A stretch of 64,000 bases of DNA. Source: Escherichia coli (GTDB lineage: Bacteria > Pseudomonadota > Gammaproteobacteria > Enterobacterales > Enterobacteriaceae). Made by a program: the position numbers. Shown piece after piece: positions 10,101 through 13,100 of this stretch; within the stretch, counting starts at the first letter, position 1; every line of letters starts with the position of its first letter. Where the stretch lies: NCBI RefSeq assembly GCF_003018255.1, contig NZ_CP027440.1. One strand, written 5' to 3'.

Positions 10101-13100
10101 CATGAAACTAGGCGAGATATCTCAGCTTGGGTTAGGGGGAGTAGTGTCTCAAGTTCTGCGATGCGTCGTTTGTAAAACCAACGGAATAGACTTGATTTGC
10201 GTCGAGCCAGCTCGCTTTTTTGTTTTGATTCTTCGGCAAGAGCCTCTTGAAGATCTGCTTTTATCTCTGCTCTTTGTTCTCGTGCTTTAGCAATCAAATC
10301 TCGTAAAGGTAAAAGGGAGGTACTTGTAAGGACTTCTACCGAAGCGCTGGATATTTCATTCATGCCAGCTACAGGCATATATATTTTAGCGTTCGATGGT
10401 GTGTTTTCTGGAGATGACCCAGACTCCAAATGAGGTTCTGTAGGGGCTGGATTTAATGGATTGGTAACTGAGTATCCATCATCATAGGGCAAGGTAGGTG
10501 TAGTATAAGATAAGCCTGTGCCCGGTAATCCGACAGTTGCTCTAACCCCTTTTTTACCAACATTGACAGTTGCGCCAGGCACGCCAATGCTTGCACTTAT
10601 TCCACGCTTGCCAATGTTGAGTCGAACGCCAGGAAATAGAGTAAAGGTTTGTCTGAAACGAAGAGACATAAAGTTATACCTATGTAGTTTTGTACACCAA
10701 AGTTCGAAATGTTTTTATATGAATATTGAGCTGATTCATAAGATTATTCCTAGCTCATCTTCATTCCGCCATGATACAACGGTTTGCTTGCAGGTGAAGA
10801 AAAACGTAAAAGCCCAATAATGATTGGTGGGCTGGTGGAGTTGAAACCGCAGGCTCGTCGTCTGCAAGAAAGTGCTGCGGCTGGCTGGTCAGCTTCTGAT
10901 AGTGAGAATATTGAATGATTTCAAGCTGTTATCGATTTTGCGTATTTTTTGTATGGGAGGATTTGTGCCTCCTCCCATCGGTCCTCCATGACTTTACGCC
11001 ACTGTCTCTAGGGCTGCTATGTGCCAGAAGCTGACATGGCTAGTCCCTAGGCACATTGACCAGCAGGTCATCCATCCCTTAACATATCGTTATGAAATTT
11101 AAAGGATCGATGTTATGGCTTATGAATTAACTTACAGACCCCTCGAATACGGATCGAATGAAAATTATCTTCGCAGAAGTTTGAAAGACCCTTCATTACT
11201 AATTCCTGAAAAAGAGATAGGATGTTTTCTAGTTCTCCAATCCTCATATGCACTACATGAAACTATTGGACTTTCAGCCCAAAACCTAGATATTTCATGG
11301 CAGTCTAACCAAAATTACTTATCGTCAAATTGTGATGGTGAGGCCCCTCTAGCTTGTTATCCTATTTATTTGATTACAGTTGGAGATGATGAAAATGAAA
11401 GGCTTGTTTACATCGGCAAGACATCATCGAAGAGCTCACGATTTTCTTCAGGCCATAGCGCAATTACTAAGTTACACCATCCTAAATATGACAATTTGTC
11501 AAAGCGTATATATTTGTGCTGCGTTGTTTTTTTAAAAAACAGCCAAACCATCCCAATAGAATGGATTAAGCCTTTTGATTTCGCTGAGAAACTATTGAGT
11601 GAATTTGAAGCGAACTTGATTTATTGGAATAAACCAGAGTTGAATACGCAACATATGAAGAAAGAACCTACATTTGAATATGGGCAAGTTCATGCACAAA
11701 ATGTAACTGGCGCAACGTATTTTTGGCATGATAAATTCATTTAGAACTATATAAACAAAACTTGAGTTAATTCTCTATTTTCCGCACTTTTTTTCCAATG
11801 AGTTCTACATATTGGTCAAGATTGTGCTCAAGGGCGCAATAAACTTAGTATTGCGTCTGTAATTCGCTCAGACTGTGTGAAAACGGTTTAAGCTTCAGAG
11901 GTGAATGCAAAAGAGGCTGACGCCTGCGCTTTTAAGTAAAATCTGCATCATCTTTCTATGTAAATTTTCTAAGAAGTCATCTAAACGCGTGACCTTCTGT
12001 CAGCAATCAGAGTTTTCATACAGCCTGCGTTCGAAGCTGCCCTTGGGCCCGCCTATGGCAGTTGAGTGCCAGAAGCGGACATTTTAACTAATATTCAGCA
12101 TGTTTATCATTATGTCACACGCAAAATGATAAATTAATATATTCAGAGGATTTTTTAACTCAAAAATGGCGTTGTAATTCAATGAACCATGCCTATAATC
12201 TAACATAAAAATAATATATCATTGAAAGGATAAGGCTTTGAATATTTACATTGATGAGTCGATACACGAGGAGTTTGGGTTTATGATCTTGGCTTATGTA
12301 GTTTGTAATCAGGATCCTCAGTCTGATATATACAAGATTCTTTCAGAACATTCAGTTGATGAACATCACTCATGCGCAAGAATGGATAAATCTGAATCTT
12401 TAAGAAATTTGAGGAGTAATCTTATTTCCTACTTAAACGCAAATTGTCGATGGGGGGCATTTATTATGCCAAGTGAGTATCGCCATCGTTCTTATGAGGA
12501 TGTGTCTTTTTTATTAAGCTTATTGATTAAGAATTTTCCAGACAGGAAAGGGAATATTTTTTTCGATGAAGGTATCATAAACCCTACAGAAGCTCTCAGT
12601 CTATGCTCTGATGAAGTCAAAGTTATAACATGCTCATCCCATGAAGTTTGTGGGATACAACTTGCTGATCTAGTAGCATCTTTTAGTGGTGTTAGGTTGA
12701 GAGAAACAATAACAGGAAAAGCAAAAATTTTAACTTACGGTTACGACTTCGGCTATGAGCCCCCAATAGAATCCCCGCTTGGATTTGAGCTTTTTGCTAC
12801 ACTTCGACAATCTATGCTCAGGGGAAATGAACCTCTTGGGAATGAGATGCCTGAATTTGCCACATTTAAAACTATTAATAAAGGATTGGTTTTGTCGAAA
12901 AACTTAACAACTGAATTTAGTCAGTTGGCATTAAAAACCTTTGGGGAAGTGTACTTAGGTTGCATCCATTAAATGTAATATTACTATTTATCAATTACTA
13001 GCAAAATTAAGCTAGGTGTTCCTAAGAATATAGGTGACGATGATACAACTGACTTCCGCTTTTCGCTCATAACAGACATTCACTACAGTTATGGTAGAAG

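Follow-up and report, generated by a model that had tools for sequence, protein, structure and literature searches.

Several systems are known in which gene modules are bounded by short recombinase core-type sites. The pdif modules of Acinetobacter plasmids lie between XerC/D sites of alternating orientation, and laboratory recombinase-mediated cassette exchange uses heterospecific lox/FRT sites. In sedentary chromosomal integrons, the cargo is enriched in defence-type genes (bioRxiv 10.1101/2024.07.02.601686). This work concerns two adjacent genes in a chromosomal stretch of 64,000 nucleotides (nt) from Escherichia coli (assembly GCF_003018255.1, contig NZ_CP027440.1), referred to as the window, one encoding a 209-amino-acid (aa) GIY-YIG-like protein and the other a 244-aa DUF3800 protein. 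On comparative sequence grounds, they are independently mobile single-gene cassettes and not a two-gene system. It is probable that both are nuclease cassettes, bounded by two types of site termed L and R, near the attachment site attR (a duplicated icd fragment) of a lambdoid prophage, and that they are exchanged within the site cores by a 200-aa tyrosine recombinase, which would act in trans.

The DUF3800 proteins (Pfam PF12686) described so far combine an RNase H-like fold with the motifs D-E and QxxD, and DUF3800 is the effector, or a domain of it, in type VII retrons, whose clade lacks the Q of QxxD (PMC7736814). TPR-DUF3800 proteins adjoin Cas12a2 (PMC10910872), and eleven unrelated structured RNA motifs, of unknown role, adjoin DUF3800 genes (Weinberg et al. 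2017, PMC5737381); the DUF3800-associated RNAs in Rfam are DUF3800-I to XI, drum, and skipping-rope (PMC5737381). For the GIY-YIG protein, the systems used for comparison are GIY-YIG nucleases that serve in conflicts between phage and host, namely T4 EndoII (2wsh), R.Eco29kI (3mx4), and PD-T4-3 (9u75), the latter being a single-gene defence.

An initial annotation had described the two open reading frames (ORFs) as lying on the + strand, 493 bp apart, and had quoted three peptides from them; ORFs, gap, and peptides are all present as described. It had also proposed that a nuclease-like effector and its partner form one two-gene system, a proposal that is abandoned here because the genes are separate in 20 other contexts. 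Co-occurrence was assessed by tblastn of both genes over 227 fetched loci (to which labels such as L001 refer), and in a census of 5,426 complete E. coli genomes. Within the fetched loci, the genes are found together only in L001, the window's own haplotype, and no conserved adjacency of GIY-YIG and DUF3800 genes across independent lineages was seen. Outside L001, 12 contexts hold the 209-aa gene only, including Aeromonas, Billgrantia, Photobacterium, Cytobacillus, three viral contigs, an icd-adjacent island, a Rep3 plasmid, and one further contig. Eight hold DUF3800 only: Yersinia (94% identity), four viral contigs, Edwardsiella (80%), Serratia (66%), and Neptunomonas (51%). All-against-all BLASTP of unannotated neighbours revealed no conserved partner in the 209-aa neighbourhoods, and none upstream. 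The census found both genes in 30 genomes, always with at least 99% identity, strains 07-4299 and SCU-113 being examples of carriers, so that their co-occurrence reflects a single event in one near-clonal haplotype. In E2348/69, an IS3-truncated 209-aa gene is present in a different island, without DUF3800. As each module is kept in unrelated contexts without the other, the two do not constitute an obligate two-gene system. The possibility that the ORFs are disrupted remnants can be set aside, both being intact RefSeq coding sequences (CDS) under purifying selection, with dozens to hundreds of full-length homologues.

The limits of the two modules are sharp and recur from one DNA comparison to the next. 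The 209-aa module extends from 10957 or 11016 to 12080-12083 (comparison with L020, L223, and E2348/69), and the DUF3800 module from 12066-12071 to 13071-13077 (L007, L014, L015, L016, and L017), this right end being seen in four contexts. It follows that the 493-bp gap consists of the end of the 209-aa module and, joined to it, the leader of the DUF3800 module. Cassette 1, carrying the 209-aa gene, accordingly spans about 11021-12082 (+) on the basis of L-type sites and module limits, and cassette 2, carrying the DUF3800 gene, spans 12066-13077 (+), with an L-type site on its left and an R-type site on its right.

The L site, which marks the left end of a cassette, consists of an arm GTCCGCT, a core GTGCCAGA, and an arm AGCGGAC. 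The R site, at the right end, has the same arms around a different core, TCGCTCAT. When complete, as in other loci, the R site reads GTCCGCT-yyTCGCTCAT-AGCGGAC and is followed by a variable spacer of about 18 nt and then by an L site, GTCCGCT-yyGTGCCAGA-AGCGGAC, with an R-to-L start spacing of 54 nt in four cases. In the window, the cassettes are likewise bounded by co-oriented L (left) and R (right) sites, all on the + strand. A first L-type copy, with a degenerate left arm and the core GTGCCAGAAGCTGAC at 11021-11035, forms the left end of the 209-aa cassette (11008..11037). A composite junction between the two genes (12024..12082), recognized by alignment with complete composites, comprises a degenerate R site (around 12024-12045), a spacer, and an intact L site, whose core plus right arm GTGCCAGAAGCGGACAT (12066..12082) coincides with the module starts and forms the left boundary of the DUF3800 cassette. 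On the right, this cassette ends in an R-type site, GACTTCCGCTTTTCGCTCATAACAGAC (13051..13077), placed by the module ends and by a breakpoint in strain M1 (see below). In terms of repeats, a direct repeat of 30 nt flanks the 209-aa gene on both sides; its core, GTGCCAGAAGC(T/G)GACAT, is a pattern with two matches in 64 kb against 0.24 expected.

These sites are not particular to the window. The L motif begins every DUF3800 module and the R motif (…TCCGCTyyTCGCTCATA…) ends every one. Arrays L027, L056, L014, L015, and Yersinia L007 consist of one- or two-gene cassettes, in either orientation, between co-oriented L and R sites, and the same sites bound unrelated cassettes in other enterobacterial prophages, in the P2 Z/fun hotspot, and in genomic islands. 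Composite sites occur in at least 1,009 of the 5,426 E. coli genomes, always unannotated. About 90% of the arm positions are pairable; a nested fold fits no better and no worse than local hairpins do, with weak covariation. Rfam contains no family matching the L/R element in the window, L007, L014, or L015. A first gapped DNA pattern scan of viral contigs gave mostly chance matches, and was later used as a negative control. Readings of the sites as nut/put antiterminator or Xer/dif elements were dropped for an apparent lack of sequence resemblance.

Block replacement between near-identical prophage ends provides direct information on where exchange takes place. E. coli strain M1 is 97.8% identical to window positions 7565-11034, and this identity stops inside the L core, after …TGTGCCAGAAGC, at 11034. 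Homology resumes at 13065, inside the R core, with GCTCATAACAGAC…. Between these breakpoints, M1 has 2.45 kb of different cargo with two other genes. The block that has been swapped whole (11035..13064, +) holds both cassettes. Similarly, the match between the window and the 209-aa cassettes of L020 and L223 is confined to the sequence right of the L core at their left end, so that the breakpoints fall within the cores in the comparisons with M1, L223, and L020 alike.

The 209-aa ORF (11115-11744, +, ATG start) is a RefSeq CDS with full-length homologues, and its product begins with a part specific to the family (about residues 1-80), after which comes a GIY-YIG nuclease domain (about 82-180). 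The peptide YPIYLITVGDDENERLVYIGKTSSKSSRF corresponds to residues 82-110. The initial annotation recognized a GIY-YIG core in it from the spacing of its motifs: the motif holds, while the interval between Y85 and Y99 is 13 residues and not 12 as stated, the usual spacing being 10-11. When 41 members with identities down to 36% are aligned, Y85, Y99, G101, R109, H114, E165, and N177 are invariant; these are the positions expected for a GIY-YIG catalytic set. The AlphaFold model is confident (predicted local distance difference test 89.8, predicted template modelling score 0.87) and displays the GIY-YIG core, a three-stranded sheet plus helices. Nearly all Foldseek matches of this model in AFDB50 are GIY-YIG proteins, the closer ones being full-length. 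The GIY-YIG assignment of the initial annotation is thus borne out by the predicted fold and the invariant catalytic residues, with a Pfam match below threshold. A large-database search returned 72 clusters of homologues, down to about 35% identity, from Gammaproteobacteria, Firmicutes, and metagenomes, a few of which carry GIY-YIG in their source name. In PHROGs, the protein matches the uncharacterised phrog_16890 (9e-27) and, below threshold, the endonuclease family phrog_1111 (0.004). Comparison with the Aeromonas gene gives a ratio of non-synonymous to synonymous substitution rates (dN/dS) of 0.08, indicating purifying selection. A sigma-70 promoter-like site precedes the ORF (11056-11085, +; TTGACC-18-TAACAT, 9/12), by consensus match only.

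Compared with T4 EndoII, R.Eco29kI, and PD-T4-3, the 209-aa protein has no sequence-level relationship; it differs in its N-terminal part of about 80 residues, which is family-specific and holds no recognised domain, in the Tyr-Tyr spacing of 13, and in the lack of a cognate methyltransferase beside its gene. It is an uncharacterised new subfamily within the known GIY-YIG superfamily, by sequence and model, with a predicted activity. Genes for Mrr_cat, Vsr, BglII, HNH, and methyltransferase proteins adjoin distant homologues. The cassette ends in a non-coding tail of about 280 nt (11745-12023), which travels along in L020 and E2348/69 and holds just one unannotated 60-aa ORF (11905-12087); as all copies of the tail are about 98% identical, its conservation is uninformative as to function. 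In strain EC0430, an IS5 element interrupts the 209-aa gene at about window position 11471.

The 244-aa ORF (12238-12972, +), annotated in RefSeq as a DUF3800 domain-containing protein, begins with a TTG codon, a start backed by homologues that all begin with MNIYIDES and by an upstream AGGA ribosome-binding site. The initial annotation called it DUF3800-like from two peptides, NIYIDES (residues 2-8) and CGIQLADLVAS (residues 138-148), and this call is confirmed by a match to Pfam PF12686 (E 7.3e-7, 30.4 bits, residues 2-148, model positions 1-144 of 149), by the N-terminal D-E and QxxD motifs, and by a predicted RNase H-like fold. More than 150 clusters of homologues were found. Among 41 members, D6, H10, E42, R59, R82, D110, S134, G139, Q141-L-A-D144, K163, G172, E184, R190, C242, and H244 are invariant; E7 is kept in at least 90% of members. 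The predicted fold is RNase HII-like, with the set D6-E7...D110...Q141xxD144. Six comparisons give dN/dS values of 0.14-0.24, again indicating purifying selection. The leader contains the best sigma-70 promoter-like site of the region (12172-12199, +; TTGTAA-16-TATAAT, 10/12), which is conserved in the leader alignment. A promoter-like site stands before each gene; the initial annotation had ascribed to each its own upstream region.

Like known DUF3800 proteins (PF12686), the 244-aa protein has the Pfam match, the N-terminal D-E, the QxxD, and the predicted RNase H2-like fold. Unlike the retron-, Cas12a2-, or RNA-linked ones, it has no nearby reverse transcriptase, Cas12, TPR, or detectable Rfam motif: an Rfam 15 cmscan (E up to 1) of window positions 8000-14500 and of L007, L014, and L015 gave no DUF3800 RNA motif. 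Its clade keeps the Q of QxxD, in contrast to the retron-linked clade (PMC7736814), and it differs from other DUF3800 proteins by its conserved C-terminal half, which ends in G-C-I-H, with C242 and H244 invariant. As judged from sequence and model, it is an uncharacterised new subfamily of a known nuclease superfamily, and its activity is a prediction. In two S1-KEN strains, ISKpn26 lies between the DUF3800 stop codon and the R site, at about window position 13001. In Neptunomonas (L012:5741-8172), about 2.4 kb without a called gene directly follows the DUF3800 homologue, and a DUF2971 gene lies directly upstream of it.

A candidate enzyme for cassette exchange is found in other loci. A 200-aa 'site-specific integrase' is encoded near composite sites in Nissle 1917 and in a Rac-like prophage; the accession of this recombinase is WP_001305361.1. 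It matches Pfam Phage_integrase (7e-19), and its NCBIfam matches (Xer-like, invertase-like, and integron-like) all lie far below their cut-offs, for example 15.9 bits for the integron integrase TIGR02249, for which the cut-off is 265. The gene is embedded between R-type and L-type sites in 11 distinct enterobacterial flanks. It was seen at L157:4279-4983, L158:8986-9691, and L027:14150-14487, and in the 64 loci L159-L222. An R-type site lies about 45 nt upstream of its start, and its stop codon is directly followed by GGTTGTC-hairpin-GTGCCAGA-AGCGGAC. The two flanks are complementary, with GACAACC upstream and GGTTGTC downstream. Homologues with 56-65% identity from GC-rich hosts keep the hairpin followed by GGCCAGAAGCGGAT. 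In the 64 recombinase loci (707 kb), 78 sites are co-oriented with the recombinase and 10 are opposed, a far higher density than in the control loci, where 990 kb hold 19 sites in total. The recombinase unit is present in 928 of the 5,426 E. coli genomes (about 17%), including Nissle 1917, compared with the 1,009 in which composite sites occur. From this arrangement, we infer that the small recombinase is the enzyme moving the L/R cassettes.

The resulting picture, a site-bounded array with an embedded small recombinase, resembles integrons and fails their defining features. As in integrons, the arrays are made of mostly promoter-carrying cassettes of one or two genes, and the sites are co-oriented, imperfectly palindromic, about 60-75 nt long, and linked to a tyrosine recombinase; defence-type genes are over-represented in the cargo, a trait of sedentary chromosomal integrons too. 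Nevertheless, the recombinase has just 200 aa and lies inside a composite site, not beside an attI, the sites have no GTTRRRY/RYYYAAC cores and conserve central cores instead of outer boxes, L and R provide two different cores at each junction, and the genes may be in either orientation. A reading of the sites as integron attC was rejected, since neither the core sequences nor the recombinase type fit. The likeness to pdif modules and lox/FRT exchange lies in discrete gene modules bounded by short recombinase core-type sites. As in lox/FRT exchange, two crossovers at two non-identical sites would explain replacement with the flanks kept. Unlike pdif sites, the L/R sites are all co-oriented and show no Xer-type sequence.

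The closest precedent is the set of inserts at the P2 Z/fun hotspot, whose inverted repeats are the same boundary element. In GenBank AJ512681.1 (the Z-region of P2-EC48), an L-type site lies within the annotated 'left inverted repeat', and the P2-EC48 ORFs are separated by further R-type sites. The repeat had, therefore, already been noticed in a 2004 study of P2 hotspots. The window differs from the P2 Z region in being a lambdoid prophage end, and the link to a dedicated recombinase and the two-core layout come from the present analysis. A literature search for the repeat sequence or for an integron-like prophage cassette system returned nothing relevant, and L/R arrays appear to have been little described apart from that P2 work. 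Its authors, Nilsson, Karlsson and Haggard-Ljungquist (2004, Mol Biol Evol 21:1), reportedly proposed site-specific recombination for the Z/fun inserts in their title.

What the cassettes carry in other loci suggests a function. Out of 20 ORFs from L/R cassettes, four match PADLOC entries, namely PDC-S39 (2e-259), PDC-S32, a ThsA-like protein, and an Aga REase-like protein; most of the others are unknown proteins. In an Edwardsiella prophage (L009/L018:5176-8345), a SIR2_2 and DUF87 (HerA-like) pair forms a cassette between L- and R-type sites, adjoining the DUF3800 cassette. In Yersinia L007, the neighbouring cassettes encode a PDC-S39 protein and a 1,269-aa CHAT protein; one composite spacer of this array holds an inserted insertion sequence (IS) with an rve transposase. 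The window's own DUF2971 gene, with its match to PDC-S31, is part of this defence-type company. Together with the nuclease folds and with the genes of restriction type found beside distant 209-aa homologues, such company is the ground on which a role in defence is proposed. Both proteins are most likely stand-alone candidate anti-phage nucleases, carried as swappable cargo; each would act alone against phages or in competition between elements, a function deduced from association.

A working mechanism can be outlined. The GIY-YIG site of the 209-aa protein would serve to cut invading DNA, with the choice of substrate probably made by the N-terminal part. The DUF3800 protein, for its part, would act on RNA-DNA hybrids or structured nucleic acids of the invader by means of a two-metal site like that of RNase HII (D6, E7, D110, and D144), each protein working alone. 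Cassette turnover would proceed by recombination within the L and R cores. Since the L core is not the same as the R core, a pair of events, L x L and R x R, would swap the cargo and keep the flanks, as seen between M1 and the window. The wider proposition joins all these elements: an uncharacterised integron-like exchange system of Enterobacterales, with a 200-aa recombinase in its own composite site and L (GTGCCAGA) and R (TCGCTCAT) cores, present in about one-sixth of E. coli genomes and moving defence-rich cassettes among prophage ends, P2 Z/fun, and islands, with the 209-aa and DUF3800 proteins as two new single-gene anti-phage nucleases. Taken as a whole, this proposition is tentative, its chances being somewhat below even.

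Several results weigh against the reading of two nuclease cassettes exchanged by the recombinase. Neither a homologue of the 200-aa recombinase nor any integrase homologue is present in the 64-kb window, so that any action there would have to be in trans. The statistics of pairing in the sites do not separate hairpins from double-stranded palindromes, and plain homologous recombination at short conserved repeats would yield the same boundaries as those observed. Regarding the proteins, the Pfam GIY-YIG (PF01541) match of the 209-aa protein is sub-threshold (i-E-value 0.005, 17.5 bits, residues 83-174), a profile search of PDB sequences with its family gave UvrC alone (E 0.67), and PADLOC-DB 2.0, which includes PD-T4-3, gave no match at E up to 1. 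The DUF3800 protein has only a weak PADLOC-DB 2.0 match, to PDC-M04A (6.5e-5, residues 1-37). A tblastn search of 50,697 deposited phage genomes gave no match for either protein at E 1e-5 or better. The 30 E. coli carriers always hold both genes, which leaves room for cooperation in this host, and nuclease activity and phage defence are predictions for both families.

The last but one of these points leads to the alternative already raised by the initial annotation, in which a GIY-YIG effector and a DUF3800 sensor, regulator, or antitoxin make up one two-gene defence or toxin system. The genes are indeed adjacent, co-oriented, together in all the E. coli carriers, and swapped as one block relative to M1, but the carriers represent a single haplotype, the genes are never neighbours across the 20 other contexts, a composite boundary site lies between modules that are conserved separately, each gene has its own promoter-like site, and E2348/69 has the 209-aa gene without DUF3800; very little probability is, therefore, left to this alternative. 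A partner of another type would be a non-coding RNA from the DUF3800 protein's own cassette (leader 12083-12237 or trailer 12973-13050), possibly including the L/R hairpins. Such an RNA would resemble the eleven DUF3800-associated motifs, structured RNAs of unknown function that recur beside DUF3800 genes (PMC5737381). In five contexts, the leader of about 170 nt and the ORF are conserved to about the same degree, and even in the divergent Serratia copy the L hairpin is retained, its stem showing a compensatory change. Such a partnership is nonetheless quite improbable, given the negative Rfam scan of the window, L007, L014, and L015, the occurrence of L/R sites around many cassettes with no DUF3800 gene, and the nature of the leader, which is AT-rich, contains the promoter, and shows too little diversity for a structure test.

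For the 209-aa protein taken separately, a selfish role can be considered, in which it would be a GIY-YIG homing-type endonuclease spreading its own gene and not a defence factor. Many small phage-borne GIY-YIG proteins are homing endonucleases, and the 209-aa gene is found in many unrelated contexts (plasmid, prophages, and islands); this role is considered highly unlikely. The remaining alternative bears on the sites themselves. The L/R repeats might be regulatory or structural elements (operators, RNA processing or termination signals), with modules being shuffled by short-homology recombination in the manner of lambdoid mosaic joints. Phage Red/RecT-type systems can exploit such short homologies, and largely invariant arms, weak covariation, and the absence of the recombinase gene from the window would all be in line with this. 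The tyrosine recombinase, however, lies precisely between R- and L-type sites in all the enterobacterial copies examined, 78 sites share its orientation as opposed to 10 that do not, inverted arms around an asymmetric core of 6-10 nt have the layout of a tyrosine-recombinase core site, and the breakpoints fall inside the cores. Shuffling without a dedicated recombinase is, on balance, rated as unlikely, and exchange of single-gene nuclease cassettes by the 200-aa recombinase is retained as the probable explanation.

Regarding the setting, the cassettes belong to an E. coli lambdoid prophage integrated in icd, and several complete E. coli genomes are 100% identical to the window over positions 10700-13450. 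In NZ_CP027462.1, lambdoid tail genes are followed by a tail fibre gene, a tail-fibre assembly gene, DUF2971, DUF4236, the 209-aa hypothetical gene, DUF3800, the icd 3' fragment, iraM, ycgX, and bluR. From this order, both ORFs, which lie in a low-GC stretch, belong to the cargo region between the last tail gene and the attR of the icd prophage; the initial annotation had likewise placed them in a cargo region. The duplicated icd 3' fragment, i.e., the attR, is at 13453-13605 (+), and beyond it come iraM (13708-14031, -) and ycgX (14731-15135, -). The layout of icd fragment, iraM, and ycgX is that known from e14 in K-12, where mcrA occupies the equivalent cargo position. On the left, comparison with L020 and ST131 identified a degenerate tRNA-Pro 3' fragment at 10957..11007 (-), a relic attachment site that limits the two-cassette region: L020 has a good tRNA-Pro 3' end at the matching position, and a related prophage end in ST131 stops beside an intact tRNA-Pro. 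No tRNA was called in the window by tRNA scans including ARAGORN, the relic being visible only by locus comparison. With this relic on one side and the icd' attachment site on the other, the two cassettes lie between an old and a present attachment site.

Further to the left, the tail-fibre assembly gene (7778-8362) is overlapped at its 3' end by a strong match to the Rfam family IS009 (8121-8319, +; 203 bits against a gathering score of 117), the one genuine hit of the Rfam scans, which lies outside the two cassettes. The DUF2971 gene (8466-9269, -) matches the PADLOC single-gene candidate PDC-S31 (1e-20), and the DUF4236 gene (9467-10669, -, 400 aa) matches phrog_17982 over its full length (3e-194). 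This two-gene module is bracketed by a 36-nt direct repeat, 81% identical, at 8378-8413 and 10847-10882, which differs from the L and R sites and whose second copy lies inside a small annotated hypothetical ORF; 120 E. coli genomes carry the module, which is integrated at several sites (icd, tRNA-Pro, and the ibsA/yegL region). NCBIfam gave no match for the 209-aa protein, the DUF3800 protein, or these two neighbouring genes.

Overall, a plausible call of a two-gene system is corrected by these comparisons, and testing the pair as one unit would be misleading because each gene needs to be tested alone. DUF3800 is a widespread family of unknown function, seen beside retrons, Cas12a2, and eleven orphan RNA motifs, and a compact, stand-alone 244-aa member with its own promoter-like site in E. 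coli offers a convenient entry to the function of the family. The boundary sites account for the way in which prophage ends and the P2 Z/fun hotspot exchange their cargo. Should the embedded 200-aa recombinase be responsible, E. coli would possess a natural cassette-exchange system analogous to integrons, which would open the way to mining new defence genes, i.e., anything located between an L and an R site, and to a genetic tool.

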